A stretch of 34,233 nt of DNA from Candidatus Methanophagales archaeon (lineage in GTDB: Archaea > Halobacteriota > Syntropharchaeia > Alkanophagales > Methanospirareceae): positions 1 through 34,233 of the forward strand of contig JACGMN010000007.1 of the NCBI GenBank assembly GCA_014061035.1. The letters run 5' to 3'. Position numbers and translations under genes: made by a program. Positions 4,994 through 31,730 of the stretch are shown in pieces. The stretch's first letter is position 1; each line of letters starts with the position of its first letter. Under the pieces are notes generated by a model. That model had not been told where the DNA came from. It was given only the letters and a program-made list of their open reading frames with translations, and did not search any database.

Positions 4994-5039
4994 GAGGCTG
5001 AAGGCAGGGGAGGCTGAAGGCGGGGGAGGCTGAGGGTAG
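4994..5039. repeat. Tandem repeat, 16 bp x about 2.9, ending at the signal peptidase ATG
   Basis: The units are GAGGCTGAAGGCAGGG GAGGCTGAAGGCGGGG GAGGCTGAGGGTAG, followed directly by ATG at 5040. Confidence 0.9.
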
Positions 5040-5616: not shown

Positions 5617-6117
5617 ATGGGTAGAAAGCCAGCTCGTATGTACACGAGAGTCTCAGGACATGCATTTGTGCGCAAAGAATATATGAAAGGGGTTCCAGGT
5701 AGCAAGATAGCTATCTTCGATATGGGCAATCCCGGCGGAGAGTTTCACGCCACTTTGTTTTTAGTCGCAAAGGAAGCTTGTCAAATACGGCACAATGCAT
5801 TGGAAGCCGCGCGGATATTCGCGAACAGGTATCTGGTGAAAGGTGTCGGGCGGAAGAATTTCTACCTGAAGATACGAGTGTATCCGCATCACGTTCTGAG
5901 AGAGAACAAGCTGGCAACCGGTGCAGGTGCAGACCGGATATCGAGTGGTATGCGACAGGCATTTGGGAGACCGATCGGGACAGCAGCGCGGGTGAAGAGA
6001 GGACAGAAGATGCTGAGCGTCGGGATCGATGAGCAGAATCTCGAGTACGCAAAGGAAGCGTTGGAGCGCGCAAGTTATAAACTGCCTACACCGTGTAAGA
6101 TTGTTAGAGATAAATGA
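5617..6117 (+). CDS. rpl10e: 50S ribosomal protein L10e (uL16)
   Basis: [11 protein letters not shown]...[15 protein letters not shown] is a typical L10e N-terminus. The ORF is 166 aa. Confidence 0.93.
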
Positions 6118-7304
6118 AAAAAGTAGTGCTTGCCTATTCCGGTGGATTGGACACTTCGGTCTGCATTCCACTGTTGCGAGAGCATTATGGCTATGACGAA
6201 GTAATTTCCGTGCTGGTGGACGTAGGACAGCAGGAAGCAGATATAATCAGGGCTGTAGAAAGGGGCAAGAGGCTCAGTGACATATTCAAGCTGATAAATG
6301 CTCAGGACGAATTTGTCTCTGATTACATCTTCCCGTTGATAAAAGCGAACGGTAACTACGAGGGCTATGTGCTTGGGACCGCGATCGCGAGATCATTAAT
6401 AGCAAAGAAAGTGGTAGAAGTTGCGAAGGACGAGAATGCAGAAGCCGTAGCACATGGCTGCACCGGCAAAGGTAACGATCAGCTCAGATTTGATGCCGTC
6501 TTCTGGGCTGCTGACCTGGATGTTATCGCACCGGTAAGAGAGCTGAGTTTGACACGTGAAGAAGAGAAGAAATATGCATTGGAGCATGGCATCTCGTTTG
6601 AAGCAGAGAAGAGGTGGAGCATAGACGAAAATATCTGGAGCCGGAGTATAGGCGGTAGTGAATTAGAGAATCCTGCTTTTTTTCCGCCTGAAGAAGTATA
6701 TCAATGGACTGTTTCTCAAGATAAGGCGCCGGACAATGCAGATATTATAAAGATCGAGTTCGCGCAGGGTATCCCGGTCTCGGTGGACGGACAAAGTACT
6801 ACCACTACCGGCGTATCGCTTATAAATGCGTTGAACAAAGTGGGTGGCAAGCACGGCGTTGGTAGAACAGATATGATCGAAGATCGGGTCCTTGGCTACA
6901 AGGCACGAGAGACGTATGAGCATCCCGCCGCCACGATATTATTGGAAGCGCATCGTGATCTCGAACGACTTGTTCTAACAAGAAACGAGTTGAGGTTCAA
7001 AGAGTTTGTTGATAGGACGTGGAGTGAGCTGGTATATCAGGGTTTAGTCATGGACCCGCTGTATGATGCTCTTAATGCCTTTATAGAGAGGACGCAGGAG
7101 AGGGTGAACGGTGCAGTATATGTGAAGCTGGAGAGGGGTCTTGCACGCGTAGTGGGAAGAGAATCGAAGAACTCGTTATATTCTTCTACTGACGTATCAT
7201 TTGAGACAAGGCAGGAGCAAGGGCAGAAAGGGCAGGGGCAAGGGATAGTCGAAGGTTTCTCTATCTATCACAGTTTTCAGGCGCGAAAGTTCAGTGAATT
7301 GTAA
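6114..7304 (+). CDS. argG: Argininosuccinate synthase
   Basis: AYSGGLDTS is the ATP pyrophosphatase P-loop. [14 protein letters not shown] is also present. The start overlaps the L10e stop by 4 nt. Confidence 0.95.
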
Positions 7305-7315
7305 ATATGCAGTAA

Positions 7316-7460
7316 CTACTTAGGTTGCCAGGTTCAAGGTTCAAGGTTCGGGGTTCTTCGCATTATCTTCATACTGCAAGCTTATGTTCTTCGTTTTCTA
7401 ATCTTGAACCTTGAACCTCAAATCGTGAACCGTGAACCCAGGAACTTTGAACCTGAGTAG
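7316..7460 (+). repeat. Palindromic heptad element, family 1, full copy A
   Basis: The TIR is CTACTTAGGTT...AACCTGAGTAG. The left arm is CAGGTTCAAGGTTCAAGGTTCGGGGTTC. The core is TTATGTTCTTCGTTTTCTAA. The right arm is TCTTGAACCTTGAACC..CGTGAACCGTGAACC. It fills the argG/nadX spacer. Confidence 0.85.
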
Positions 7461-8309
7461 CTACCCCAGACGCATAGAAAAAGATATGCGTTTCAGTGTT
7501 GCTATTGCAGAAAGGCTTGTTAAATAGCTCGTCTTTGGATTAGCAACCGAGGGGACGTTTCTTACACGGACGAATAAATCACCAAAATCTCCTCTTGCCT
7601 TTATTTCATGACTGTTCACTTTCGCAGCAGGGTCTGCAACTATCTTCACCTTTACCTCTGTATATGGACTCATACATGCAATGCACAATGTCGCAGCGAC
7701 ATTTACATTCTCAGGAAAATGCCTCACCGCTTCTTTCGCTGAGCCTATAAACAATGTTGTTGCCTCCTTTATCGATGAGAGATTTATCCCACGTTCTCTG
7801 ATATACGCATTCCCTTCGAATACCTGCGGATGCTTTCTCGTCGTTAATTCTACTGAATCGATTCTCCCAACGGCGCCGGCTTTGAGTCCATCTATCCCCG
7901 CTACAGCACCTGAAGGGATATACACCCCACATCCTTTCTCCTTTGAGATGCGTTCTATCTCTCCAAAAAGAGACGGATCGCTGAGTAGTGCACCGACACT
8001 CAAGATCATTACTTCTTTACGCTTTTTTAATGCCGGTATCAGATACTCACGAACTGCCGCCTGCGAGGCACACTCAATTACCAGATCGATCTCGTCTAAA
8101 ATTTCATCAAGTTCGGTACTATCTGTTTTTACTATCTCTGGCTTCTTTAAAAGAGTTTCACAGAGCGTCTCTATCTTCTCTGGACTGATGTCGATCAGAA
8201 ATTTTAACTCCATTCCTAAGTTTAACCTGCGGCTATTTACTTCATCCGTGTCTATTGCCTTGCAGATCTCACTTCCGATAGCGCCACAGCCAACAACGCC
8301 CACTCTCAT
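7461..8309 (-). CDS. nadX: L-aspartate dehydrogenase
   Basis: MRVGVVGCGAIG is a Rossmann motif. PSGAVAGIDGLKA, FPENVNVAATL and VADPAA..N.HEI...NPKTS match the NadX family from memory. Confidence 0.88.
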   Translation of the reverse strand: MRVGVVGCGAIGSEICKAIDTDEVNSRRLNLGMELKFLIDISPEKIETLCETLLKKPEIVKTDSTELDEILDEIDLVIECASQAAVREYLIPALKKRKEVMILSVGALLSDPSLFGEIERISKEKGCGVYIPSGAVAGIDGLKAGAVGRIDSVELTTRKHPQVFEGNAYIRERGINLSSIKEATTLFIGSAKEAVRHFPENVNVAATLCIACMSPYTEVKVKIVADPAAKVNSHEIKARGDFGDLFVRVRNVPSVANPKTSYLTSLSAIATLKRISFSMRLG

Positions 8310-8354: not shown

Positions 8355-9077
8355 ATGACGCGACCTTTTGTCTTTATAAATGCCGCAATGAGCGCAGACG
8401 GGAAGATCTCGACGGTAGAACGAAAGCAGACGAGAATAAGCGGTACGGAAGATATTGACAGGGTTGATTCACTGAAAGCAGGAAGCGATGCAATAATGGT
8501 CGGCATCGGCACTATTTTAGCTGATAACCCGTCTTTAACGGTGAAATCCGAAAGTAGAAGAGAGAAGAGAGATAAAGTAGGGAAGGATGCAAATCCCATC
8601 CGAATTGTAGTCGATAGCACGGCAAGAACACCGGTTGATGCTGAGATATTGAATAAAGGCGAGGGCAAACGGATCATTGCAGTTTCACAACGAGCAATTT
8701 TAGAGGACATCGATCTGTTAAGCAAGAAAGCGGATATTCTGGTCTGTGGCACTGAAAAAGTCGACTTGAAAGAGCTACTTCATATCTTGTGGCTGCGTGG
8801 TCTGCGCCGGGTGATGGTAGAAGGCGGTGCAACGCTGAACTGGTCCTTGATCTCAGAACAACTCGTTGACGAGATATATACATATATTGGCAATATGATA
8901 CTCGGCGGAGAAAGAGCACCCACGCTTGTGGATGGCGAAGGGTTCAAACTCGGCGGCGAGACGACTGGTGGGATAGTAAAGCTGGAGTTGTTACGTATGG
9001 TGAAACTGGACGCTGGTCTTTTACTGCAGTGGCGTGTTCAAGGTTCTCAGGGTTCAGGGTTCACGGTTCCGGGTTAG
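8355..9077 (+). CDS. 2,5-diamino-6-ribosylamino-4(3H)-pyrimidinone 5'-phosphate reductase (RibD C-terminal domain family)
   Basis: The sequence reads RPFVFINAAMSADGKIS...GSDAIMVGIGTILADNPSLTV...VEGGATLNWSL. The last ~14 codons and the stop lie inside a repeat element (see findings). Confidence 0.8.
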   Translation: MTRPFVFINAAMSADGKISTVERKQTRISGTEDIDRVDSLKAGSDAIMVGIGTILADNPSLTVKSESRREKRDKVGKDANPIRIVVDSTARTPVDAEILNKGEGKRIIAVSQRAILEDIDLLSKKADILVCGTEKVDLKELLHILWLRGLRRVMVEGGATLNWSLISEQLVDEIYTYIGNMILGGERAPTLVDGEGFKLGGETTGGIVKLELLRMVKLDAGLLLQWRVQGSQGSGFTVPG

Positions 9078-9151
9078 AAAACGATGAACATAACCCAGTA
9101 TGAAGATAAGGCAACCAATTGTGAACCGTGTGAACCTGACAACCTAAGTAG
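9036..9151 (-). repeat. Palindromic heptad element, family 1, copy C (inverted orientation)
   Basis: The reverse complement reads CTACTTAGGTTGTCAGGTTCA...TTATCTTCATACTG..TTATGTTCATCGTTTTCTAA..GGAACCGTGAACCCTGAACC. It aligns by eye with copies A and B. Confidence 0.8.
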
Positions 9152-9217
9152 CACGTTCTGCCGTTCGTGGATTCATCAACTATCACAAGATATATGAAGG
9201 GTTGCAAGGCGAACAAC

Positions 9218-9260
9218 CGTGAACCCTGAATCCTGAACCGTGAACCGTGAACCCTGAACC
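9218..9260. repeat. Isolated array of six TGAACC-type heptads (family-1 arm only)
   Basis: The array reads CGTGAAC CCTGAAT CCTGAAC CGTGAAC CGTGAAC CCTGAAC. Confidence 0.75.
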
Positions 9261-9299
9261 TATAAGAAGCCCCTTAAATATAATGTTTACGTTAGTATA

Positions 9300-9327
9300 A
9301 TTTACTTTGTAGCATTTACTTTGTAGC
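9300..9327. repeat. Tandem repeat, 14 bp x 2, about 30 nt upstream of tRNA-Ile
   Basis: The units are ATTTACTTTGTAGC ATTTACTTTGTAGC. Confidence 0.85.
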
Positions 9328-9358
9328 ACGCACACCACGCACTGAGGTGTAAGAACAA

Positions 9359-12163: not shown

Positions 12164-13039
12164 TCAAAATACCGCAAATATAATGAGCGTTACGCATCGT
12201 GCGAGTTCGTTAGAAGCACCCATGACATCGCCACTTATTGCACCAAAATTCTGTCTCGCTACGTAAGAGAGAAAAAATGCGACTATGACGCCTGTGAAGA
12301 CAATAATGAAATAAAACGAAGCGGTAAAGAGTACAGCAATAAGCACGGCAGAAAGAAGAGCAGCTATGTATTTCCGTACCGAAAAAGAGCGTATAAACAG
12401 AGTTCCCATACCCTGCACAGCTCCATTCTCATTCCCATTCCCCGCCCCATTTTTACCTTCACTCACGAATCCCTTGCCTGGTAGTGCCAGTACCATACAC
12501 GTATTCATACTCAGTTTTGCAGAGACCTCGGCGATTATGAATACTGCAGCAAAATCATAAACCGTGATGGGATCGAGATACAGAAGATTGAAGTCAAAAG
12601 CAGCCACTGTGGATATAAATTCTGCACCTACAGTCTCTATGGCAGATAAACTCAATAGGAGAAGAATGATAACAGCGAACAATCCCGCTATTCCTATTTT
12701 AGCGTCCTTCATCGCTCTTCTCTTCTCTGCTCTGCTTCCCTGCGCCATCAGACCATCAGAGAAATCCGCTAAACCATCAATGTGCAGCAGACCGGTGAGA
12801 AGGTAAAGAACGAGCAGCGTGAGCAAAGCGGCAATTTCAGCTCTTGCCGGCACTGCCACGACTAAAAATCCAAAAACGATAAAAGCAACTACAGCGACGA
12901 TCAAGCCAATCAATAACCCGACAAAAGGAAAAAGATGGCTATTTACTGTAACTGCATCTATATTTACTACCTTTTTTACCGGTATTTGCGTTAAGAAACT
13001 GATAAGATCACGCATATCTTCAAGCCGTTCAATCTTCAT
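12164..13039 (-). CDS. cobS: Adenosylcobinamide-GDP ribazoletransferase (cobalamin synthase)
   Basis: FLTQIPV and the HIDGLADFSDG motif are present in a polytopic membrane protein. It contains a G/N-rich insert. Confidence 0.8.
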   Translation of the reverse strand: MKIERLEDMRDLISFLTQIPVKKVVNIDAVTVNSHLFPFVGLLIGLIVAVVAFIVFGFLVVAVPARAEIAALLTLLVLYLLTGLLHIDGLADFSDGLMAQGSRAEKRRAMKDAKIGIAGLFAVIILLLLSLSAIETVGAEFISTVAAFDFNLLYLDPITVYDFAAVFIIAEVSAKLSMNTCMVLALPGKGFVSEGKNGAGNGNENGAVQGMGTLFIRSFSVRKYIAALLSAVLIAVLFTASFYFIIVFTGVIVAFFLSYVARQNFGAISGDVMGASNELARCVTLIIFAVF

Positions 13040-14225: not shown

Positions 14226-14889
14226 TATTTGCTTTCCTTTCCTTCTCCTCTTCTGTTGCTTTCTTCTCCTCTTCCTTTTCTCCTTTCTCGTCTACAACTT
14301 TCACGTTCATACGAAAAATATCTGGTACATTTGAACCGGGCGCTACTATCCATACTAGTACACCGATAACGCCAGCCTTTTTTTTCGCTATTGCATATCC
14401 TCTATCCACTATCTCTTCTGCTATAGAACCACAGTGCTTTATATAGCCCTCGACCATCTTCTCCATTCTGCCACGAGGCCCCTTAAGCTTTCCGGACATG
14501 ATAATCTCACAGCCAAGTGCTCCCCTATCTATTATTCTTTGTAAGGTTGACCTACCAGCGCGCCTGAAATGCCAGCCACGCTCTATAAGTTTTGCAAGTC
14601 TATTTGCCATCAACTGTGCATTTAGCTCCGGCACCTCAATTGGCTGAACGTCTATTTGTGGGTTATCCAGTTCTTGCCTATGGAGTATCTCGTCGGTCAG
14701 CCGCTTTATCCTCCTACCATCTTTCCCTATTATCATTCCCGGCTTCTCAACTTTCACCGTTATCTGCGTGCCCATCGGCGTTCTTTTTATCTCCATCCCG
14801 CCATAGCCCGCTCTCTCTAGCTCATTCCTGAAGTACTCGTTCAGTCGTACTTTCTTTATCCCTTCTTCTACGTATATCTTCTCTATCAC
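14212..14889 (-). CDS. rps3: 30S ribosomal protein S3 (uS3)
   Basis: The KH-domain motif IIGK.G..I..L is present, and the operon position fits. It has a K/E-rich C-terminal tail. Confidence 0.92.
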   Translation of the reverse strand: MIEKIYVEEGIKKVRLNEYFRNELERAGYGGMEIKRTPMGTQITVKVEKPGMIIGKDGRRIKRLTDEILHRQELDNPQIDVQPIEVPELNAQLMANRLAKLIERGWHFRRAGRSTLQRIIDRGALGCEIIMSGKLKGPRGRMEKMVEGYIKHCGSIAEEIVDRGYAIAKKKAGVIGVLVWIVAPGSNVPDIFRMNVKVVDEKGEKEEEKKATEEEKERKANNGHI

Positions 14890-15905: not shown

Positions 15906-16685
15906 TTATCCTCTTTTCTTTCCAGTTCTTTTTGCCGCTATACTTCCAACCTTCCTTCCTGGTGATGCGCCTCTACCAGGCGTTTTGGACTTACCAACAT
16001 GCTGATGTGCACCACCACCGTGAGGATGGTCAACAGGATTCATTGTTACACCTCTTACAGTTGGATATTTTGTCGCACGTGCCTTCATCTTATAATATTT
16101 TTTACCTGCCTTTACAAAAGGCTTCTCGGTCCGACCTCCACCAGCAACAACACCGATGGTCGCGAAACACTCGGATGATAGCCATTTCTTCTTGCCACTT
16201 GGCAGTACAACGAGCGATTTGCCATTCTCCACTTCATGCGCTAACACCGTAGCACAATCGCCGGAAGACCGTACGAGTTTACCGCCGTCATTTGGTCTTA
16301 CTTCTACGTTGCAGACCATAACTCCTTCAGGTATACGGTGAAGCGGGACTGTATTACCTGTCATTATCTCCGCGGCCGCACCATACGAGACCACATCACC
16401 TTCTCCTACTCCCTCAGGTACAATTATAAAACGCTCCTCTACTTTCTTCTCTACTCCATTCATTCCTGGTCTTGATCCTGATCCTGAGAGCTCATCTCTT
16501 TCTATCTTTATACGAGCGATAGGAGCGCTCCTCGCAGGGTCGTGCGCTATTTCCACGATTCTTCCTGAGACCGTCTCATTCTCATTCAACCTCACGTGTT
16601 CGAGATTTCCTTTATAACGGTGCGAGGGTGCCCTAAAGGTGGGTGATCCCTTACCTCTCCGTTGCGCTATTATTTTCTTCCCCAT
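15906..16685 (-). CDS. rpl2: 50S ribosomal protein L2 (uL2)
   Basis: GRRG.G...FRAPSHRYKG, IAHDPARSAP and VDHPHGGG are present. It carries a ~20 aa insert containing SGSGS. Confidence 0.95.
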   Translation of the reverse strand: MGKKIIAQRRGKGSPTFRAPSHRYKGNLEHVRLNENETVSGRIVEIAHDPARSAPIARIKIERDELSGSGSRPGMNGVEKKVEERFIIVPEGVGEGDVVSYGAAAEIMTGNTVPLHRIPEGVMVCNVEVRPNDGGKLVRSSGDCATVLAHEVENGKSLVVLPSGKKKWLSSECFATIGVVAGGGRTEKPFVKAGKKYYKMKARATKYPTVRGVTMNPVDHPHGGGAHQHVGKSKTPGRGASPGRKVGSIAAKRTGKKRG

Positions 16686-16724
16686 CGCATCTTTAATCTA
16701 TTTTAAATATTTCCCGTCGTATAT

Positions 16725-16752
16725 AAAGTATAACTTCTAAAGTATAACTTCT
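16725..16752. repeat. Tandem repeat, 14 bp x 2, in the L23-L2 spacer
   Basis: The units are AAAGTATAACTTCT AAAGTATAACTTCT. Confidence 0.85.
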
Positions 16753-16915
16753 ACCTAATTTAGGACGCAGATTTACGCCGATACACGCAGAAAACAAACT
16801 AACCATAACCAAGTTGATAGAAGATTCTAAAAATCTCATCCGTCAATTCCGTATATTTAAAATCCTGATTATCTGCGTTCATCTACGTCCGATTATAAAA
16901 TTTATTCTTTCTCGT

Positions 16916-18984: not shown

Positions 18985-19015
18985 CTTGCTCTTTCTTCTG
19001 ATATATTATATTTAT

Positions 19016-19045
19016 CAATGCTTACCAATGCTTACCAATGCTTAC
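19016..19045. repeat. Tandem repeat, 10 bp x 3, in the leader of the L3 operon
   Basis: The units are CAATGCTTAC CAATGCTTAC CAATGCTTAC. Confidence 0.9.
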
Positions 19046-19082: not shown

Positions 19083-20351
19083 TCAAAATGCACGCCTAAC
19101 ACACTCTTCTGTCTTGCATAGCTTCACTTTCGCAGAACCACAGAGAAGCGGTACATATCTCAACATTTTACCTGAATTTGTTATTACACACCGGTAATTT
19201 TCAAACGCTGGCGATACTACGAAACACGTATCACAGATCACCTTCACACCGTAATCTTCTATCTTTCTTACTGTCTCCTGCATACGCTCTTTTATCGCTC
19301 TCGCAGTGAAGATAAAGAGTTCATTTCTTACTTTTCTGCCACGGCTTTCTGCGCTCAAGAGTTCGTATATATGCTGGAGTTCCTGAGCAGAGCAGTGAGG
19401 GCATCCTATCGCTATTACCACACCGCCTTTTTCTGTTCCCGTATCACAATCACAATCACAGTCCCAGTCCCAATCCTCGTAAAACCGTTTTAAATCGGCT
19501 TCTTCTATCTCTGCTCTTTCTGAAGGAACCGGGAAGTCTACTTCTACTAATCCTGCTATATCTATATGGTACAGTCCGATAGAGCCAGTGGCACCTATCG
19601 CAGCAGATAAATGCTTCAACTCGTCCTTGCTCGGAGAAAGAGAGGAAGATAAAAATGAAGACGGAGAAAGCTCTATCAATGGTATTTTACTGCTTGCAAG
19701 CTCACCTATCAAGAATCCAAGAGCGCTATAGTCCGCGTCTGTAATGAGACGGTCCACATTCACAGAGACACGTATTCGTATCTCAGCCTCTCTCCTTTCC
19801 GTCTCGTGAAGCCCGTAAAGAGGTGTTTTGCCTATAAGTGCTGATGCAAGAGCAGACGGCGCACCTTCAATATTCGTTCTTGCACCCAGTACAGAATTGG
19901 CATACAGGACGGCAGAAGATTCCGACCATGCGATGTGCTCACCCATCTCCGGCGTATTTCCAATGAGATAAGGAACACAGGTGCACTCCGCGGTGATGCC
20001 TAATTTCGTATACGCGTTGATCACTTCCTTTTGCTTCGCGACAAACTTATTTGAGACGTTCATAACATTCCACCGCTCTCTGTCCATGCCGATAGGATTT
20101 AACGTGCTTTTGACTTTTACCGTTCTGTCAATCTCATTGTCAATACCAACGTCAATACCAAGACGGTTGATGAACTCAAAAGCGTCCCCGATAGTCTTAT
20201 AGGACGCACCGGAGATATGCGCTGATTTTATTGGTATTAATTTTGAGGCATTATTTATATCTCCTATTGCAACGAGTATCTCCATCGCCTTTTTCCTCGC
20301 CCAGCCCTCTTCTCCTTCATATATCCGCTCTTCTTCCCGCGTAAGGTGCAT
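19083..20351 (-). CDS. Aconitase X catalytic domain protein (DUF521); candidate phosphomevalonate dehydratase large subunit
   Basis: LTREEE.I..GE.G.....AME.LV..G and I..AHISG.SY are present, as is the conserved Cys context (CTCVPY, GCPHCS). The family call is from memory. No small subunit (DUF126) is adjacent. Confidence 0.7.
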   Translation of the reverse strand: MHLTREEERIYEGEEGWARKKAMEILVAIGDINNASKLIPIKSAHISGASYKTIGDAFEFINRLGIDVGIDNEIDRTVKVKSTLNPIGMDRERWNVMNVSNKFVAKQKEVINAYTKLGITAECTCVPYLIGNTPEMGEHIAWSESSAVLYANSVLGARTNIEGAPSALASALIGKTPLYGLHETERREAEIRIRVSVNVDRLITDADYSALGFLIGELASSKIPLIELSPSSFLSSSLSPSKDELKHLSAAIGATGSIGLYHIDIAGLVEVDFPVPSERAEIEEADLKRFYEDWDWDCDCDCDTGTEKGGVVIAIGCPHCSAQELQHIYELLSAESRGRKVRNELFIFTARAIKERMQETVRKIEDYGVKVICDTCFVVSPAFENYRCVITNSGKMLRYVPLLCGSAKVKLCKTEECVRRAF

Positions 20352-20471: not shown

Positions 20472-21605
20472 ATGAAGATAGCGATTTACCATCGCGATAT
20501 AAGTGGCGGAATAAAGACGCATGTCGAATCGCTTTCGCGTGAATTCGAGAAGCAGGGGCATGAAGTAAAGAGAATAGATCAGTTTTCACTCGGCTCTTAC
20601 ATGCTGGGTAATACTAAGGGTGGCATCTCGTATGGCTTAGACTTTGCGCTAAGCAAGATAAAAGAAAAGGTTGCTGATTGTGATATTCTTCATATACATC
20701 ACGCTGCTACGGTCTCTGAACTTTTCCTGCCATTCTCGTCTATTTGTTCTGATATCAGTATTGTTAATACGTTTCATACTCAAACAGGGGAAGGCTTGAA
20801 GGGTGAAGTGGCACGAACATATATATCACTGATTGTTACACTCTATACCGGACGGTCGAAGAAATTTATCTCGGTAAGTGCAGAGAATGCAGAATATCTC
20901 CGTCAGCATTGTTATGTCGATAACATTTACGACTACGAGACCGGCGCTGGCAACAGTAACAGCAAAAGTATCAAGACCGGAACTGAACTTGTGGTTATAC
21001 CTAATGGCGTTGATGTCAATCGCTTTTATCCAGCGGATAAGGATACGGATACGGATATGGATAAGAACGGAGAAGAGCGTGATGATAGGAAAAAGCCGGT
21101 TTGTATAGGTTATCTGGGACGGTTATCTCCTGAAAAGAATGTGATAGGGATGATAAAGGCGGTGAAGGCATTGAAGCAGGCTGAGATAAACTTAAAGATT
21201 GCAGGTACTGGGCCGCTGTTTGCTAAACTGAAGAAGCTGGAAGACGAAAGAATAAAGATTTTAGGCTATGTCGAAGACGCTGCTTCATTCTATCGAAGCG
21301 TGGACGTTTTCTTACTGCCTTCTAAGCTCGAAGCGCAGCCGATTACACTGCTCGAAGCGATGGCATCGGGGCTGCCGATCATTGCTACCGATGTCGGTGA
21401 TAACAAACATTTTATCTCAGGAAACGGAATACTCTGCGGAACATCGGTGAAGGAGATAGGAGCGGCGATAGAGACGATGCTATCTGAAAAGAACGGTTGG
21501 GTAAAGATGGGTATAGAGTCGCGGAAGATTGTTGAGCAGAACTATACGTGGGATAAGATAGCAAGAAGGACGCTCGAGGTCTATAGAACCGCACTGTCAT
21601 CATAG
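20472..21605 (+). CDS. Glycosyltransferase family 4 (GT-B, group 1)
   Basis: The N-terminus is MKIAIY...GG. The C-terminus carries the EX7E motif (PSKLEAQPITLLEAMASGLPIIAT). Confidence 0.85.
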   Translation: MKIAIYHRDISGGIKTHVESLSREFEKQGHEVKRIDQFSLGSYMLGNTKGGISYGLDFALSKIKEKVADCDILHIHHAATVSELFLPFSSICSDISIVNTFHTQTGEGLKGEVARTYISLIVTLYTGRSKKFISVSAENAEYLRQHCYVDNIYDYETGAGNSNSKSIKTGTELVVIPNGVDVNRFYPADKDTDTDMDKNGEERDDRKKPVCIGYLGRLSPEKNVIGMIKAVKALKQAEINLKIAGTGPLFAKLKKLEDERIKILGYVEDAASFYRSVDVFLLPSKLEAQPITLLEAMASGLPIIATDVGDNKHFISGNGILCGTSVKEIGAAIETMLSEKNGWVKMGIESRKIVEQNYTWDKIARRTLEVYRTALSS

Positions 21606-21629
21606 ACTTTCATCATAGATAAATTGTAA

Positions 21630-21797
21630 CTACTCAGGTTGCCAGGTTCAAGGTTCAAGGTTCAAGGTTCAAGGTTTAAGGTTCAAGGTTCACGGTTGTC
21701 AAGCTTGCGCTCTTCATTCTTCATATTTCTTGAGATAGTTTATGGTCATCGTTTTCTAATCGTGAACCATGAACCCCGGAACTTTGAACCTGAGTAG
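21630..21797 (+). repeat. Palindromic heptad element, family 1, full copy B
   Basis: The TIR is CTACTCAGGTT...AACCTGAGTAG. The left arm has ~7-8 heptads (GGTTCAA x4, GGTTTAA, GGTTCAA, GGTTCAC). The core is TTATGGTCATCGTTTTCTAA. The right arm is TCGTGAACCATGAACC. Confidence 0.88.
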
Positions 21798-21859
21798 TCA
21801 CCATAACATAACGTATAACTGTTCTTGAATATATTAAACAAGAGATAATTAACCAGAAG

Positions 21860-22160: not shown

Positions 22161-22186
22161 CGTACAGACGTGACGTACAGACGTGA
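22161..22186. repeat. Tandem repeat, 13 bp x 2, ending 1 nt before the cPGI ATG
   Basis: The units are CGTACAGACGTGA CGTACAGACGTGA, then C ATG. Confidence 0.85.
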
Positions 22187-22187
22187 C

Positions 22188-22967
22188 ATGGCGTGGAATG
22201 AGTTGAAGATCGGAAAAAGCACGTTCTTCCCCGTAGTGCGGAAGTTGGCGGAGATGAAAGAGATCGTATTTGATAAAAGTTTCTTAGCAAGTGCCGAGAT
22301 GGATATGGAGTTGTATTACATCTTCAGGGACGTATCAAGGGACGAAAAGGATGCGAAGAAAATAAAGGAGATAGGACTGAGGTACGACATTACGATTATT
22401 CCGCCCGGTGCGCTCGGCATGGAATTCGTTAAGACCGCGGGACATTATCATCCTTATATCCGCGGCTCGGCACTGACATACCCGGAGATGTACGAAGTAT
22501 TGGAAGGAGAAGCACATTTTTTATTGCAAAAGCGAGAAGAAGAAGAACGGAGCGGTATCGAAGAGATAACCGATGTTGTAGTCGTAAAAGCGAGGAAGGG
22601 AGATGTTCTAATCATACCACCTAATTATGGGCATGTTACGATCAACCACACTGAAACGGTCTTAAAGATGGCTAACTGGGTTGCTCGAACGTTCTGCTCG
22701 ATATATGAGCCAATAGAGAGAAAAGGCGGTGCCGCTTATTTTGAACTGACAACTGGCGAGTTTGTAAAGAACGAACGTTATGAAGCTGTGCCACCTATAA
22801 GATTCTTACAGCCACGGGATACAGGGATAAGGGAATTAGAATTAGAATTAGAACTGAGCAAGGGCGTAGCGATCTATGAACTACTCAAAGTATCTGAAAA
22901 GCTAAAGTTCCTTACTAAAGCATCTCAAGCGCAATTTCTGCCGCCCGTTTACCTGAAAATAGCATAG
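22188..22967 (+). CDS. Cupin-type glucose-6-phosphate isomerase (archaeal cPGI family)
   Basis: TAGHYHP....YPE.YEVL.G.A and PP.YGH.TIN are cupin metal-ligand motifs. I chose the ATG at 22188 because the track start at 22053 would overlap acyP. Confidence 0.62.
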   Translation: MAWNELKIGKSTFFPVVRKLAEMKEIVFDKSFLASAEMDMELYYIFRDVSRDEKDAKKIKEIGLRYDITIIPPGALGMEFVKTAGHYHPYIRGSALTYPEMYEVLEGEAHFLLQKREEEERSGIEEITDVVVVKARKGDVLIIPPNYGHVTINHTETVLKMANWVARTFCSIYEPIERKGGAAYFELTTGEFVKNERYEAVPPIRFLQPRDTGIRELELELELSKGVAIYELLKVSEKLKFLTKASQAQFLPPVYLKIA

Positions 22968-24260: not shown

Positions 24261-24444
24261 TTGTTCTGTTTCACGTCTCAAAATTTTTAGGACTTTTAGA
24301 ATAGAATAAATAATATACTAAGGGAAATAAAGATAATATAGCTATACCATGCTGTATTAAAAATAGGGTATAGATAAGAGATAGATGGCAAGTAGCCCTG
24401 TACCGGTAAGAACAAAAAGGAAAAGGAGTGAGTGAGTGATTGAG

Positions 24445-24768
24445 ATGGTAAGCACAAGTAAGCATAGACCTAAGCCGCTGGACGTATTAAATAGGGCATT
24501 GAAATCCCAGGTTATCGTAAGGATCCGGGGTGGTAGAGAATTTAGAGGTATACTGGAAGGATATGATCTGCACATGAACCTGGTGTTAAGCGGTGCAGAT
24601 GAGTTGAATAGTGACGCGCCGGTCAGGGATTTTTCAGGAGAAATTCTGATCCGGGGAGACAACGTGGTATACATCTCGCCAACAGTGTCGAGAGAGGTAG
24701 AAAAAGGCGAAGATGTGAGTAAGAGCAAAAGCAAAAGCAAGGAGGGTGGAGAGAGGGAGAGATGGTAA
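24445..24768 (+). CDS. Sm-like archaeal protein (SmAP/LSm)
   Basis: The Sm1 and Sm2 motifs are PLDVLN......V.V...GGREFRG.L.GYD.HMNLVL and [11 protein letters not shown]. It has a C-terminal SKSKSK tail. The stop overlaps the L37e start (ATGGTAA). Confidence 0.85.
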
Positions 24769-25510: not shown

Positions 25511-26197
25511 ATGAAATACGACCTGCACATCCACTCAAAATACTCGGCAGATGGTGTTCTTGAACCTGAAAAGATCGTGAAAATCGCGATGCGAGTAGGG
25601 CTTGATGGAATCGCAGTAACAGATCACGAGACGATAAAAGGCGGGGTAAAAGCAAAGAAATATGAAAATGATGATCTCATCGTGATAGTTGGTTCGGAAA
25701 TAGAAACCGAGAGAGGAGAGATAATTGGTCTTTTTCTTGAAGAAGAAGTCAAATCAAGGAGTCTTCAGGAGGTCATCGATGAGATTAAAGATCAAAACGG
25801 TATAGCTGTGGTACCGCATCCTTTTGATAGATTAAGGCGTCTCACATTTCATCCAACAGAAGAAGATGTAAAATTCATAGATTGTATCGAGGGCTTCAAT
25901 TCACGGTGCGTATTTCAGCGATACAATAAGAGAGCGATAGAGTATGGAATAGAACATGGCTTAGCGATTACTGCTGGAAGTGACGCACATTTCGGAGGGC
26001 AAATCGGAGACGCGTTTATTTTAGCGGAATCTTCAGATGAGGAAGACTTGATGAGAAGAATCATGAAAAAAGAGATTAGTTTCAATGGAAGATTGAGCAA
26101 CCCTTTATATTTAGTCATTGGAAAGGTGCTTACTCAGGTTCAAAGTTTCAGGGTTCACGGTTCAAGGTTAGACAACAGATCAAGATTGAACGAGTAG
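25511..26197 (+). CDS. PHP-domain metal-dependent phosphoesterase
   Basis: YDLHIHS.YS.DG, G.DGIAVTDHET, PHPFD and AGSDAH are present. The last ~22 codons and the stop lie inside a repeat element. Confidence 0.8.
   Translation: MKYDLHIHSKYSADGVLEPEKIVKIAMRVGLDGIAVTDHETIKGGVKAKKYENDDLIVIVGSEIETERGEIIGLFLEEEVKSRSLQEVIDEIKDQNGIAVVPHPFDRLRRLTFHPTEEDVKFIDCIEGFNSRCVFQRYNKRAIEYGIEHGLAITAGSDAHFGGQIGDAFILAESSDEEDLMRRIMKKEISFNGRLSNPLYLVIGKVLTQVQSFRVHGSRLDNRSRLNE
26130..26197 (-). repeat. Short (about 68 bp) family-1 derivative
   Basis: It reads TTACTCAGGTTCAAAGTTTCAGGGTTCACGGTTCAAGGTTAGAC...GATTGAACGAGTAG. The first 45 nt match the reverse complement of the right end of copies A and B. Confidence 0.7.
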
Positions 26198-26241
26198 GCG
26201 AACAAGTGTGGACACGAGTGAAAGGAATTGCAACCAAGCTA

Positions 26242-27408
26242 TTACATAACTTTCAATGACCGACCGCCTACAATCCGCCCCTCGTGGATCACTGCCGCTA
26301 TGTCAGTACGTCTCGCTCTTCTCACCACTCCTTTTACAGGATCGCTAACGTTTCTCATATTTGCTGTGTCGGTACGGATCACAACGAGATTCGCCTTCTT
26401 ACCCTCTTCTATCGAGCCCACCGATTCCGATTCCTTCAGCACCGCCGCAGAATCAAGCGTGCACATCTTGAGCACATCCTTTGCCTCGCTGCGGAAGATC
26501 TTAGAGATGAATTCCATTTCAGAGAACATATCTGGCGAATTCAGCATTACGTTATCTGTGCCTGCACCGACAGTCAAACCAGATTCGAGCATCTGCTGTA
26601 ACGGTGGCAGACCAGATCCAGTAACTAAATTAGAGCGGATGCAAACGACAGCAGCTATATCTGCATCATACATCTTCTTGAAGTCCTGATGCGATGCTTT
26701 TATAAGATGCACGAGGAAATCGGGCTCGAGTTCTATCGCATCTGCTATGTCCTCAGCGGTTCGCTCACCAGCATGAAGTGCGAACATCTTATTCATTCTC
26801 TTTGCTTCTAAAGCTGGTAGTTTTATCGCTTCCAGTGGATAGTCTGCGACACTGCTCATACCTATTCCGTCCACCGCCTTAAGAAGCTTGTCAATAGCTA
26901 CCTCTACCGTTCCTGTCCTGTCTACCTCAACAGAATCGGGAACGGGACTGCCGAATATTTTTACACCTATTTGCTCCTGCTTCTTCCTTTCTATATAACA
27001 TAAAACAGCCCTTAACGCGAGCACACCCGGAAGACCACCTTCGCGGAAATCTGCGAATATCTGTGTCCCTGTAGCAAGCATATCCTCAATAGTATCGTTC
27101 ATCGCCGAGACCAGCGCTCCATAGGTGGCTGCCCCCAATATCCTATGCTTAAATCCGCCGGGACCAACTAATTGCTCGAGAGGCATAAACTCTGGCTCTT
27201 TTAATACAGAATCACCGATGTGCGTATGTGCATTGACGAAAGCAGGGATTATAATACCTTCTATCGCTGCGTCTATCTTTCTATTCTTTCTATTATCCTC
27301 TATTTCTTTTATCTTCCCATCCTCAATTACGAGATACCCGTCCTTCGCTTCAAAATCATCGCCTGCTACTACTATTCCTGAAAGTGAAAACGAACAAGTC
27401 AAGGTCAA
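26242..27408 (-). CDS. Amidohydrolase-superfamily protein (chlorohydrolase/deaminase-like)
   Basis: PAFVNAHTHIGDS is the HxH metal site. HAGE and GTDN motifs are also present. The substrate cannot be assigned from sequence. Confidence 0.72.
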   Translation of the reverse strand: MTLTCSFSLSGIVVAGDDFEAKDGYLVIEDGKIKEIEDNRKNRKIDAAIEGIIIPAFVNAHTHIGDSVLKEPEFMPLEQLVGPGGFKHRILGAATYGALVSAMNDTIEDMLATGTQIFADFREGGLPGVLALRAVLCYIERKKQEQIGVKIFGSPVPDSVEVDRTGTVEVAIDKLLKAVDGIGMSSVADYPLEAIKLPALEAKRMNKMFALHAGERTAEDIADAIELEPDFLVHLIKASHQDFKKMYDADIAAVVCIRSNLVTGSGLPPLQQMLESGLTVGAGTDNVMLNSPDMFSEMEFISKIFRSEAKDVLKMCTLDSAAVLKESESVGSIEEGKKANLVVIRTDTANMRNVSDPVKGVVRRARRTDIAAVIHEGRIVGGRSLKVM

Positions 27409-27409
27409 G

Positions 27410-28720
27410 CTATAGGTACTCCTCTTCTATACGCAACAATTGATTGTACTTGATCGTCCTCTCGCTTCGTGCAGGAGCGCCAGTTTTTATCAGCTCTGCA
27501 TTTATTGCTACCGCGAAGTCGGCGATGAACGGATCCTCGGTCTCTCCCGATCGATGGCTGACTACTTTCTTATACTCGTTCTTATTAGCCAGACGAACGG
27601 TCTCCAGCGTCTCCGAGATAGTTCCGATTTGATTCAACTTCAGCAGAACCGCATTTGCCGCTTTCTTCCTTATACCCGCCTCTAACAGCCTGGCATTTGT
27701 AACAAAAAGGTCATCACCGACGATAATCTGCCGCGATAGCCTTGCTGTAAGTTCTGCAAATAACTCAAAAGATTCCTCTTCAAACGGGTCCTCTATTAAT
27801 TCTAATGGATAGGTCTCGACAAGGTCTTGATAGAAGTCAACGAGTTCAGCGCCCTCTCTCACTCTGCCATCTATCATGTACTTCCCGGTCTTCGGATCGA
27901 AGAACGATGACGCAGCAGCATCTATACCAAGCCGTATTTCAGATTCAGAATATCCTGCCTCTGCTATTGCCACTGTTATCGCCTCGAGTGGCTGACTCGT
28001 TAGACGCATAGCGGGCGCATAACCGCCTTCATCACCTACATTCGTAGCGATTTTTCCATATCTATCTATTAACACCGTCTTAAGTGCATGATAAATCTCA
28101 ACGCCAGCCCTCAATCTATCGCTGAACCTGTCAAAGCCGGTAGGCAATATGTGAAATTCCTGTATGCTCAACTCGTTACCTGCATGCTGACCACCGTTTA
28201 TCAGGTTCATCAACGGTACTGGTAACTGGAACTCAAACGCGAGTTTTAGCCCTGATCCTAATCCTGATCTTGATCCTGATCTTGATCCTGATCTTGATCC
28301 TGCTACGTCCTCACAGATATAAGCAAAAAGCGGTTTCTTTAACGAATCTGCAGCAGCTTTGCAGACCGCGATTGATGTCCCGACTATTGCATTTGCACCT
28401 AAATTCGACTTGTTCTCAGTTCCATCCAGTTCTATCAACTGCGTATCTATCTCTCGTTGTTCGAGAGTGTCCATTCCATTAAGTGCTTTTTTAATAACTG
28501 TATTCACAGCTTCAACAGCTTTGAGAACCCCTTTACCGCCATATCTTCTCTTATCACCATCTCTCTTCTCCATTGCTTCTTTACTACCTGTTGATGCTCC
28601 TGAAGGTACGCTCGCCCTGCCAAACCCGTTCGTTGTACTCACGTCTACTTCTATGGTGGGGTTTCCACGAGAATCAAGTATTTCTCTTCCTTTTATTCCT
28701 CTTATCTCTGTTACCGTCAT
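27410..28720 (-). CDS. eno: Enolase (phosphopyruvate hydratase)
   Basis: I.GREILDSRGNPT.EV, SVPSGASTG..EA, LPVPLMNLINGG, IVGDDL and SHRSGETED are present. It carries a GSRSGSRSGSRSGLGSGL insert. Confidence 0.95.
   Translation of the reverse strand: MTVTEIRGIKGREILDSRGNPTIEVDVSTTNGFGRASVPSGASTGSKEAMEKRDGDKRRYGGKGVLKAVEAVNTVIKKALNGMDTLEQREIDTQLIELDGTENKSNLGANAIVGTSIAVCKAAADSLKKPLFAYICEDVAGSRSGSRSGSRSGLGSGLKLAFEFQLPVPLMNLINGGQHAGNELSIQEFHILPTGFDRFSDRLRAGVEIYHALKTVLIDRYGKIATNVGDEGGYAPAMRLTSQPLEAITVAIAEAGYSESEIRLGIDAAASSFFDPKTGKYMIDGRVREGAELVDFYQDLVETYPLELIEDPFEEESFELFAELTARLSRQIIVGDDLFVTNARLLEAGIRKKAANAVLLKLNQIGTISETLETVRLANKNEYKKVVSHRSGETEDPFIADFAVAINAELIKTGAPARSERTIKYNQLLRIEEEYL
28251..28303. 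repeat. In-frame 6/12-bp microsatellite inside eno
   Basis: It reads CCTGATCCTAATCCTGATCTTGATCCTGATCTTGATCCTGATCTTGATCCTG. On the minus strand it encodes GSRSGSRSGSRSGLGSG. Confidence 0.9.
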
Positions 28721-30473: not shown

Positions 30474-31730
30474 TTAATCAAATACCAAAACATCATTCAA
30501 AACAGCGATTACTTCGTCTATCTCATTTTTACTTATAACCAGTGGCGGCACTAACCTTATCACGCTCTCAGAAGTGCAATTTATCAAGACGCCAAGGTCA
30601 ATAGCTTTCTTAGCAATAATTCCACTACACGGGTTCGTCAATTCTATCGCTATCATCAGCCCTTTTCCTCTTATTTCCTTTATATATCTATACCCGGACC
30701 CTGACCTTAACCTTAGCCCATTCTCTCCTGTATGAAGATTATTAAGAGAATTCATTAAATATTCGCCAAGTTCTCGTGACCGTTCAACCAGTTTCTCATC
30801 CTCTATCACGGTTATAGACGCCAGTGCTGCTGCACACGCGAGTGGATTGCCACCAAATGTCGTTCCATGCTCACCGATCTCAAACTCTATTCCCTCCTTT
30901 GCAAGTACAGCACCAATAGGGAACCCGGCACCCATTGCCTTTGCTACCGTCATTATATCAGGCTCTACGCGATCGTGCTCCTTACCAAACCACCGCCCTG
31001 TCCGACCAAACCCGGTCTGTATCTCATCAAGGATCAGCAAAACACCTTTCCTGGTGCATATCTCTCTTACCTCTTCCAGATACCCTTCTGAAGGAACTAA
31101 TACCCCTGCTTCTCCCTGGATAGGCTCTAATATGACTGCGGCAGTATCGCGATCTATCGCCTTTTCAATCGCTGTTGCATCGTTGTATCTTACAAATTTC
31201 ACGTTTTTCAGGAGTATCGGTTCAAAAGCAGCCCGGAATTTTTTGCCCGCGGTCAGACTCAAGGAACCAAGAGTTCTGCCATGAAAACTTCCTTCTGCAG
31301 CTATAAAATTATGCTTACCAGTAACTTTACATGCCAATTTCACCGCAGCTTCTATGCTTTCCGTCCCCGAATTACAGAAAAAGACCTTTGCCATACCACT
31401 ACTACTACCACTACTACTACTACTACCACTACTACTTATTTCAGTCAGTTTCTCTGCAAGTTTCACCTGCGGCTCGCTGTAATACAAATTCGAGACGTGA
31501 ATGAGCTTCTCAGCCTGCTCCTTCATTGCATTCACTACCACCGGATGGCAGTGCCCAACTGCGTTTACTGCAATGCCACCGACGCAGTCTATATACTCGT
31601 TACCCGAGAAATCTGTTACTATCGCTCCTTTTCCACTTTTTAATACTATTCGCTCTCTTTTGTACGTTTGCATTAAGTATCTCTTCTCGTTCTCAAAGAC
31701 TTCTTCCATAGACGTGAACAATTGAATCAT
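30474..31730 (-). CDS. argD: Class-III aminotransferase, acetylornithine aminotransferase-like
   Basis: FFCNSGTES.EAA.KLA, DEIQTGFGRTG and T.AK..G.G.P.GA (PLP Lys) are present. It carries a poly-Ser/Gly insert. Confidence 0.82.
   Translation of the reverse strand: MIQLFTSMEEVFENEKRYLMQTYKRERIVLKSGKGAIVTDFSGNEYIDCVGGIAVNAVGHCHPVVVNAMKEQAEKLIHVSNLYYSEPQVKLAEKLTEISSSGSSSSSGSSSGMAKVFFCNSGTESIEAAVKLACKVTGKHNFIAAEGSFHGRTLGSLSLTAGKKFRAAFEPILLKNVKFVRYNDATAIEKAIDRDTAAVILEPIQGEAGVLVPSEGYLEEVREICTRKGVLLILDEIQTGFGRTGRWFGKEHDRVEPDIMTVAKAMGAGFPIGAVLAKEGIEFEIGEHGTTFGGNPLACAAALASITVIEDEKLVERSRELGEYLMNSLNNLHTGENGLRLRSGSGYRYIKEIRGKGLMIAIELTNPCSGIIAKKAIDLGVLINCTSESVIRLVPPLVISKNEIDEVIAVLNDVLVFD
31395..31437. 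repeat. In-frame ACT/ACC trinucleotide tract inside argD
   Basis: It reads ACCACTACTACTACCACTACTACTACTACTACCACTACTACT. On the minus strand it encodes SSSGSSSSSGSSSG. Confidence 0.9.

Follow-up and report, generated by a model that had tools for sequence, protein, structure and literature searches.

Borg elements of Methanoperedens carry amino-acid tandem repeats (aaTRs), which are near-perfect repeats inside open reading frames (ORFs), have units divisible by three, often lie in extracellular or membrane proteins and do not encode Cys (Schoelmerich et al. 2023, PMC9879509). Intergenic repeats of Borgs mostly have units not divisible by three, partial or degenerate units flank the arrays, the repeats evolve fast within populations, the low-complexity segments are predicted to be disordered, short-read contigs terminate there, and tandem repeats are virtually absent from the genomes of the Methanoperedens hosts (PMC9879509). 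Here we describe tandem arrays in a stretch of 34,233 nucleotides (contig JACGMN010000007.1 of assembly GCA_014061035.1; the whole stretch is called the window below) from a Candidatus Methanophagales archaeon, of the anaerobic methanotrophic archaea group 1 (ANME-1), in which an in-frame microsatellite lies in the enolase gene and further arrays lie in other core genes. These arrays share with the aaTRs the near-perfect units, divisible by three within ORFs and mostly not between them, the degenerate flanking units, the fast change within a population, the low-complexity segments, predicted to be disordered in the case of enolase, and the ends of short-read contigs. They differ in that the host is a segment of an ANME-1 cellular chromosome with a ribosomal-protein operon, the units are 3-12 nt long, ancient housekeeping enzymes and ribosomal proteins are hit, and the array in the gene for an AcnX-type dehydratase encodes Cys (DCDCDC). 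Thus the likeness to Borgs that the initial annotation had raised holds for the analogous outcome, and membership fails. Because the window carries the uL3-uL4-uL23-uL2-uS19-uL22-uS3-uL29 operon, two tRNAs (the only hits in an Rfam scan) and core metabolism, and because its nearest genomes are ANME-1 metagenome-assembled genomes (MAGs), we regard it as ANME-1 chromosomal DNA and not as an extrachromosomal element, and the earlier view that the hosts are core chromosomal genes was correct.

Simple sequence repeats within the coding sequences of prokaryotes offer a second comparison, because there too in-frame indels are tolerated preferentially at termini and loops and strains differ by whole units, but the density of 6-12-nt arrays in conserved single-copy genes of the window is far above that norm, and, unlike contingency loci, the arrays shift no frame. 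In Plasmodium falciparum, a eukaryote with extreme AT bias, housekeeping proteins contain low-complexity inserts rich in Asn and Lys. Like these, the inserts of the window are lineage-specific, repeat-encoded and probably disordered loops of conserved enzymes which are length-polymorphic between isolates; unlike these, they encode varied dipeptides, in DNA of 44-46% G+C. P. falciparum is also the genome richest in short tandem repeats (STRs) (PMC12699852). In bacterial and archaeal genes, slippage of short repeats makes low-complexity regions grow and shrink, and Persi et al. (2023, PMC10120016) found such regions to be prominent in families that are young and evolve fast, whereas in the window old and slowly evolving proteins are affected (enolase, uL2, uS3, ArgG, ArgD and Sm). 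In full-text searches on tandem repeats, microsatellites or disorder in ANME-1 we came upon no description of this phenomenon, and a 2026 study of ANME-1 diversification left out variants of ≤50 bp. The mechanism is known and ordinary, the lineage and such a density in core genes appear to be unreported, and the targets (a ribosomal protein and enzymes of glycolysis and of the arginine pathway) are noteworthy: an uncultured, free-living archaeon has length-variable microsatellites in genes that would be thought ‘untouchable’.

We interpret the genic arrays as coding microsatellites that are made and resized by slipped-strand mispairing in an ANME-1 clade unusually prone to tandem repeats with 5-12-base units, filtered by selection and mostly tolerated as passengers, and we give this interpretation a probability of roughly 0.78. 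A short duplication would start in a codon pair, for example TCA-GGA or TCA-AGA, and slipped-strand mispairing in replication or repair would then gain or lose whole units. Within genes only units that are multiples of three would survive, and only at places that can accommodate extra flexible residues without harm, namely interdomain linkers, hairpin loops or C-terminal tails, and the outcome would be low-complexity, probably disordered di- or tetrapeptide runs in conserved, functional housekeeping proteins. The inserts would thus most likely be passengers of mutational bias and not adaptations. The arrays have the features of coding microsatellites, namely head-to-tail near-identical units, whole-unit polymorphism and a frame-preserving unit length, and archaeal PolB and PolD are reported to slip in vitro (PMC4134008).

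The enolase array and its history

The gene and its array are as follows.

27410-28720, minus strand: enolase gene, 436 aa, intact; phmmer against PDB gave an E-value of 2e-134 to 2pa6
28251-28302, minus strand: enolase microsatellite, 12-nt unit (two hexamers), (TCAAGATCAGGA)x3 plus a degenerate unit; product GSRSGSRSGSRSGLGSG

The initial annotation had placed an in-frame microsatellite in a surface loop of enolase at 28251-28303. Tandem Repeats Finder (TRF) called the array with period 12 and 4.3 copies (95% matches, score 90), or alternatively with period 6 and 8.7 copies, and the array is in frame within the intact ORF, which bears out the in-frame microsatellite. On the coding strand its codons are (TCA AGA TCA GGA)x3 followed by TTA GGA TCA GGG, the flanking protein context is ...FAYICEDVAGSRSGSRSGSRSGLGSGLKLAFEFQLPVPLMN..., and the full-length translation of 436 aa reads ...PLFAYICEDVAGSRSGSRSGSRSGLGSGLKLAFEFQLPVPLMNLINGG... 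around the array. The top PDB matches in phmmer were all enolases, and the alignment with 2pa6, the enolase of M. jannaschii, was split into query residues 5-135 and 164-434 against chain residues 10-140 and 146-412, so that the window enolase has 28 residues at a site where 2pa6 has about 5. This position is the interdomain linker from the N-terminal domain to the barrel. All columns invariant in 40 homologues were kept, including E187, E230, D266, E309, D336, K360, H388 and K411, which we take to be the canonical catalytic set. The AlphaFold2 model, built on the alignment of these homologues, reached a predicted template-modelling score (pTM) of 0.86, and its TM scores to enolase structures were 0.86-0.88. 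By its full-length similarity, its two-domain fold of an N-terminal capping domain and a TIM-like barrel, and its catalytic and metal-binding residues the protein is an enolase. Long low-confidence stretches of the model were limited to residues 41-52, presumably the mobile active-site loop, and residues 142-161, the repeat, which is coil with a predicted local distance difference test (pLDDT) below 50, between the helix 130-139 and the strand 167-174. Low pLDDT together with coil, by which we predict disorder, was thus found in enolase, the sole protein modelled. What the model supports of the proposed surface loop is a probably unstructured stretch in an otherwise enolase-like protein.

The segment between ..F.YI and LPVP was then compared across 120 homologue clusters. 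About 80 ANME-1 clusters have a linker of 12 residues, typically CEDVAGMKLSYE, the Methanosarcinales and Methanoperedens have 7, and the window has 30, so the segment is an insertion as had been proposed. A few ANME-1 lineages have linkers of 14-18 residues, whose sequence is unrelated to the array. The only related insert belongs to the nearest relative (P0001, 85% identical, from Joint Genome Institute (JGI) sample 3300032103), in which CEDVVGSESGSRSGLKLGSEFP is encoded by two degenerate 12-nt units, TCA GAA TCA GGA TCA AGA TCA GGG. The insert is thus specific to this lineage, and unrelated archaea are without it. A strain allele (P0304, 432 aa, on the Logan contigs L169 and L170) has one GSRS unit (12 nt) fewer and otherwise equals the window enolase. 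The alleles therefore form a series from no array, to two degenerate units, to two perfect units and one degenerate, to three perfect units and one degenerate. Because the array is present in the window and degenerate in the 85% relative, it is older than that split, and its length is still changing; judged from these alignments, an array whose degenerate two-unit form is common to both is not very young. A scan of metagenome contigs with enolase found no relative above 79% identity, and the closest genomes by enolase were ANME-1/Methanophagales MAGs at 75-79%. Synteny at the enolase gene was kept across relatives only for serA and the amidohydrolase gene, and exact-protein look-ups gave no match for the window enolase, the uL10e-like protein (5617-6117), the 193-aa membrane protein or uL4. 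Eight window proteins matched the NCBI entries MBA59417xx (locus tag H0M93_) exactly.

Arrays in other core genes

Nine further repeat sites had been listed in the initial annotation, and all nine are real, in frame and within 1-6 bases of the positions first given. Arrays beyond these sites encode RLRSGSG in argD, EEEE in cPGI, TTTT in argG and NRKNRK in the amidohydrolase, and uS3 has a 27-nt duplication. Gene boundaries were taken from ORFs plus public gene calls.

3908-3931, minus strand: HDAC-like gene, (AGCCGT)x4, perfect, x4.0; SRSRSRSR in the C-terminal tail
6798-6809, plus strand: argG TT array, (ACTACC)x2; TTTT
7210-7244, plus strand: argG GQ array, GGGCAR-type; QGQKGQGQG near the C-terminus
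12423-12442, minus strand: cobS, (AATGRG)-type hexamers, found by TRF; NGNENG
14229-14281, minus strand: uS3, 27-nt x2, TRF score 71; E/K-rich C-terminal tail
16464-16487, minus strand: uL2 (rpl2), (TCAGGA)-type; SGSGSR in a lineage-specific loop insertion
19443-19475, minus strand: AcnX-type dehydratase, (GAYTGK) hexamers; DWDWDCDCDCD
21034-21063, plus strand: GT4 glycosyltransferase, (GATACG)-type; DTDTDMD
22536-22547, plus strand: cPGI EE array, (GAA)x4; EEEE
22833-22853, plus strand: cPGI EL array, (GAATTA)x3.5, perfect; ELELELEL in a C-terminal extension
24724-24740, plus strand: Sm/LSM protein, (AGCAAA)x2.8; SKSKSKSK in the C-terminal tail
27272-27294, minus strand: amidohydrolase, 9-nt x2.7 (TRF); NRKNRK
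30693-30713, minus strand: argD second array, AGG TTA AGG TCA GGG TCC GGG; RLRSGSG in a 16-residue insertion
31394-31436, minus strand: argD trinucleotide array, (AGT)n/GGT, TRF period 3 x14.3, score 65; SSSGSSSSSGSSSG in an 11-residue insertion

The array codons, the structure comparisons and the uL2 orthologues all bear out that core genes other than enolase carry such repeats. Perfect hexamer arrays occur in the HDAC-like, AcnX and cPGI genes, and in most of the encoded runs the residues S, G, R, D, E, K, T, N or Q abound. Because the units differ from gene to gene, no single inserted element lies behind the genic arrays. The arrays in enolase (28261-28296), uL2 (16464-16487) and argD (30693-30713) have a motif in common, (TCA RGA/GGG)n, which encodes Ser-Gly or Ser-Arg.

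Close orthologues were compared for enolase and uL2, and for argD, AcnX, argG, cPGI, the HDAC-like protein and Sm the insertion status was judged from distant PDB homologues. On known structures the arrays of uL2, argD and AcnX map to internal insertions, with 18 extra residues in uL2 relative to 1s72_A of H. marismortui, 11 and 16 in ArgD relative to 2eh6_A and about 9 in AcnX relative to 7cnr_A. The earlier picture of surface-loop insertions in all of the genes therefore stands as insertions in these proteins and in enolase, whereas other arrays lie in tails: the conserved deacetylase domain of the HDAC-like protein reaches to about residue 316-318 and the Sm fold to about residue 81, with the arrays lying beyond, and the EL run of cPGI is a C-terminal tail past the conserved domain. 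In argG, the GQ run replaces an existing C-terminal linker with almost no net change of length, and it is no net insertion relative to 4u7j. The arrays point to sites at which conserved proteins can bear 2-20 residues more.

The length of uL2 is graded among relatives: Methanosarcinales, Syntrophoarchaeum and part of the ANME-1 have 237-240 aa and most ANME-1 have 243-249 aa (loop ..NGGEKKV..), followed by 257 aa in an 89% relative (loop LSELRPGMNGV) and 259 or 261 aa in the window population, in which the SGSGS run lies within the same hairpin loop. Candidatus Methanospirare jalkutatii (P0226) has an independent insertion, GNGSGGEE, at this loop. Several ANME-1 lineages have independently gained residues at this loop (GNGSGGEE, NGNGRGK, NGGEKKV), which is an insertion hotspot.

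Genic and intergenic unit lengths, which had been suggested for comparison by TRF, differ in the window. Genic arrays with at least 2.8 copies have a period of 3, 6 or 12, the exceptions being two heptamer arrays at last codons and one weak period-5 array in cobS, whereas in 16 of the 18 intergenic arrays the period is not divisible by three (7, 8, 10, 13, 14, 16). This split is expected if repeats arise everywhere and selection purges those that break the frame from genes.

Strain variation and repeat density

Nine strain contigs were obtained from the European Nucleotide Archive (ERZ23486814, ERZ23486815) and from Logan (SRR27899007, SRR27899017, SRR27899021, SRR16916502) by exact look-up of uL22 and aIF2-beta and then of the shorter enolase allele P0304, and other alleles were taken from protein clusters at 90% identity. 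Over 17.4 kb of the window the contigs are 99.3-99.7% identical to it, and the pairwise alignments contained 190 substitutions and 12 distinct indels. All 12 indels fell on tandem repeats, partial duplications or homopolymers, and 7 of them lay in the 3.9% of the compared sequence that TRF intervals occupy (binomial P ~9e-8). Genic indels were 6, 6, 6, 6, 9 and 12 nt long and intergenic ones 13, 8, 6, 1, 1 and 1 nt. Repeat numbers, for which a population comparison had been proposed, could be compared across assemblies, and 11 of the 12 assessable genic arrays varied by whole units. Besides enolase, uL2 has alleles of 259 or 261 aa (one SG more in P0274), CobS of 291 or 293 aa (NE; one 6-nt unit more in L083/P0278), Sm of 107 or 109 aa (one SK more in P0286), AcnX of 422 or 420 aa (one DC fewer in P0289/P0290) and the HDAC-like protein of 357 or 361 aa (four residues more, SHSR, in P0296/P0297). 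The cPGI alleles are of 259 or 261 aa, with one EL unit more in L086/P0280/P0283, and the EE array is 6 nt longer (EE) in L169/P0281. ArgG allele P0303 has one GQ and two T fewer, and the amidohydrolase lacks one 9-nt unit (NRK) in L169/L170. Only the glycosyltransferase array, among the assessable ones, showed no length variant (3 alleles), and no length variation was seen in the 27-nt repeat of uS3 in L081-L084. Phase-variable contingency loci were rejected as an explanation of the genic arrays, because every genic array and variant preserves the frame. Such whole-unit differences make the arrays ready strain markers for ANME-1 populations, in the style of variable-number tandem-repeat typing.

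The same contigs bear on whether the repeats are artefacts of assembly or sequencing, or their genes decaying pseudogenes. Short-read assemblies do break or gap at some arrays: the Logan contigs L169 and L170 both stop inside the (AGT)n array of argD, at window position 31423, and L085 has 100 N at the enolase array (28273-28290). However, the arrays recur in frame in at least six independent assemblies, made from different runs, which differ only by whole units, plus or minus one; the affected ORFs are all full length with the conserved residues of their families; and the 85% relative, from a different JGI sample, bears a related array. We therefore give an artefact or gene decay practically no probability, and neither an assembly error nor a frameshift, which the initial annotation had named as possible outcomes, was found in these assemblies. 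The repeats are a systematic cause of short-read contig fragmentation for this MAG lineage and account for assembly breaks at fixed places in the window population. Other contig ends at repeats are those of L081 at window position 9071 and of L085, L086 and L169 at about 21750-21800.

Repeat density was measured with TRF at a permissive setting (score ≥30, non-overlapping arrays) and compared with 200 shuffled replicates in which codons were permuted within genes and bases within spacers. That the arrays are chance low-complexity stretches such as every genome has, which would need no special process, is contradicted for the window: it has 49 arrays, where the shuffles average 6.9 with 15 at most (about 7-fold; none of the 200 reached 16), 12 arrays of period 6 or 12 against 1.1, and 15 of period 7n against 0.9. 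It is true that many TRF matches with score 30-35 and about two copies are at noise level; the excess over shuffles rises with a higher score threshold. Compared with other genomes, the window has 1.43 arrays per kb against a median of 0.46 per kb for 61 other genomic loci with lengths of 10 kb or more (about 3-fold), and for perfect repeats with 5-9-base units and at least three copies it has 0.117 per kb against 0.007 per kb pooled over 1.70 Mb (about 17-fold), the highest of 100 sequences. Total perfect STR over all unit sizes, as defined in PMC12699852 (unit 1-9, at least 3 copies, at least 10 bp), is not extreme, with 6.5 bp per kb against a median of 2.35 for 99 loci, and this speaks for chance. 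In a survey that included 687 complete archaeal genomes, archaea were the domain with the lowest STR density, 1.02 bp per kb, and showed no enrichment over simulated genomes (PMC12699852); our comparator median is unlike this value, presumably because of detection details, and we therefore relied on our own like-for-like comparison. Moreover, indels concentrate on the arrays, and chance as the whole explanation is hardly credible.

The distribution of repeats among relatives suggests that the tendency is heritable. The 85% sister contig (L168, Ga0326310_10002416) has 1.21 arrays per kb in other genes, with in-frame runs in Rpb4 (EGEEKEGEGKGEE) and in a protein of unknown function (RNGNGNRNENGNK), whereas relatives at about 79% enolase identity have 0.2-0.5 arrays per kb and no arrays of period 6 or 12. 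Because the sister is rich and the ~79% relatives are poor, the tendency looks like a property at the level of clades. A second ANME-1 clade at 70% enolase identity, with the loci L009 (JAODGR010000048.1) and L149 (Ga0190304_1000371), is repeat-rich as well, with the runs DEDENEDENEDEN, GTGTGTGTG and RGRDRGRD. The density that the initial annotation held to be unusual for a prokaryotic chromosome is thus above shuffles and comparators and not unique, as L168, L009 and L149 have it too. The in-frame repeats in L009/L149 and L168 have 6-, 12- and 18-nt units and lie in different genes, and the enolase of L009 ends in EEELEQELEQD.

Slippage may also have made arrays that were then kept for use, as tunable linkers or tails (‘tuning knobs’), as modification or interaction sites, or as condensate-forming disorder. 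Several points weigh against the preferred interpretation, and some of them favour use. The enolase insert has been kept since the 85%-identity split and the uL2 insertion since the 89%-identity split, the uL2 loop was lengthened independently in several ANME-1 lineages including Candidatus M. jalkutatii, and function has been argued for the analogous Borg repeats (PMC9879509). The composition is mostly disorder-promoting, and a functional disordered linker of such residues would look like a tolerated one. As to the enrichment, our comparison loci are enolase-gene neighbourhoods and not random genome samples, our view of the genome is a 34-kb window, total STR density is unexceptional as given above, the ANME-1 locus L009 exceeds the window in period-6/12 arrays per kb, and the length variants come from assemblies and not from reads. 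The persistence of the inserts and the repeated lengthening of the uL2 loop keep a functional reading alive at a modest probability; overall we judge it improbable. The arrays lie in unrelated proteins and have unrelated units and no common motif, and nearly all of them differ in length between strains that are about 99.5% identical, which speaks against an optimum length. Cys and Trp are encoded by the AcnX array (DCDCDC, DWDW), which fits a mutation-driven origin better than selected composition, and intergenic DNA is even richer in arrays than genes (18 arrays in about 12% of the window), pointing to a mutational source. From the near-universal polymorphism, the unrelated proteins and the Asp-Cys/Asp-Trp array we infer that the inserts are mostly passengers and probably near-neutral, and that slippage would be the molecular event that resizes them.

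In a wider and more doubtful form of the slippage interpretation, this clade and, independently, the second ANME-1 clade would have a heritable hyper-slippage state, caused by a peculiarity of replication or repair, which writes disordered segments into core proteins; we put this forward tentatively, as a possibility on the unlikely side. This state would also spawn lineage-specific intergenic elements. If true, it would be a cellular, chromosomal counterpart of the tandem repeats described until now as a hallmark of Borgs, and the clades would offer a natural system in which the factor behind the tandem-repeat load of archaea could be found. Likewise, if the clade-level tendency, with its apparently raised propensity to slip, holds genome-wide, a comparison of repeat-rich with repeat-poor ANME-1 could reveal which replication or repair factor governs archaeal slippage, and the Borg repeats would gain a wider context.

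The intergenic heptamer element

Heptamer arrays between genes do not stand alone as microsatellites but form the two inverted arms of a palindromic element, which is dispersed, separate from the genic arrays and specific to the lineage. Its left arm reads ..GTAACTACTYAGGTTGCC(AGGTTCA)n, a variable spacer follows, and the right arm reads (TGAACCN)n..GGAACTTTGAACCTGAGTAG, with conserved outer ends ACTYAGGTT ... AACCTGAGTAG. The copies in the window are, at approximate positions:

~2140-2345: heptamer element copy
7305-7470: heptamer element copy
9030-9265: heptamer element copy
21620-21800: heptamer element copy
26110-26200: partial heptamer element copy

All copies lie directly 3′ of genes, and two of them fold as RNA with −58.7 and −51.9 kcal/mol and, relative to dinucleotide-shuffled sequences, with z about −5. 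Of about 170 loci, only the window and its strain-level contigs contained the family, and short-read contigs of the window population tend to end at the heptamer arrays. Two arms run into genes, so that the C-termini are partly encoded by the element: the arm at 9047-9075 runs into the gene 8355-9077 (C-terminus ..QGSQGSGFTVPG), and the arm at 26136-26169 runs into the gene 25511-26197 (C-terminus ..VQSFRVHGSRLDNRSRLNE). Of 26 substitutions between L081 and the window, 4 fall within about 40 nt of one arm (9215-9267), and this cluster suggests fast turnover or conversion between units. The nearest known kinds are the heptamer arrays of cyanobacterial short tandemly repeated repetitive (STRR) sequences, and bacterial palindromes of the repetitive extragenic palindrome (REP) or bacterial interspersed mosaic element (BIME) type and miniature inverted-repeat transposable elements (MITEs). 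The element resembles these in its intergenic tandem heptamers and in dispersed copies with inverted arms that form long hairpins downstream of genes, and differs in the sequence of the unit, in the archaeal host and in that the arms themselves are heptamer arrays. No transposase or target-site duplication was identified for the element, and it is possible that it acts as a terminator or RNA-stability element or is a MITE-like repeat.

The genic arrays might be thought to derive from this (RGGTTCA)n element, copies of which landed in or near genes and were trimmed to in-frame hexamers. The (TCA RGA/GGG)n arrays of enolase, uL2 and argD (second array) are indeed one base shorter than TTCARGG, and heptamer arrays do reach the last codons of the genes 8355-9077 and 25511-26197. 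However, the AGCCGT, GATTGT, GATACG, GAATTA, AGCAAA, AATGGG, GGGCAA and AGT arrays are dissimilar to the element, the flanks of its arms are absent beside every internal genic array, the 9.9 kb of L168 contain the enolase array and no member of the heptamer family, and the common 5-mer could be chance. Descent from the element is thus highly unlikely, and a mobile-element origin of the genic arrays was likewise judged unlikely.

Two arrays lie immediately before start codons. (GAGT)x4.8 at 24426-24444 abuts the Sm/LSM start codon at 24445, and L085 and L087 have two units more (+8 nt). The second array, at 22161-22187, directly precedes the cPGI start at 22188; of its 13-nt unit CGTACAGACGTGA the window has two copies, and L085, L086 and L169 have one. 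Variation of (GAGT)n alters the spacing of the Sm 5′ leader and could affect expression, and a regulatory effect is possible for both arrays. Four further intergenic repeats, at 19012-19045, 16724-16753, 9300-9328 and 4994-5033, have units of 10, 14, 14 and 16 nt, respectively, with 2-3.4 copies and TRF scores of 58-73, and are unrelated to the heptamer element.

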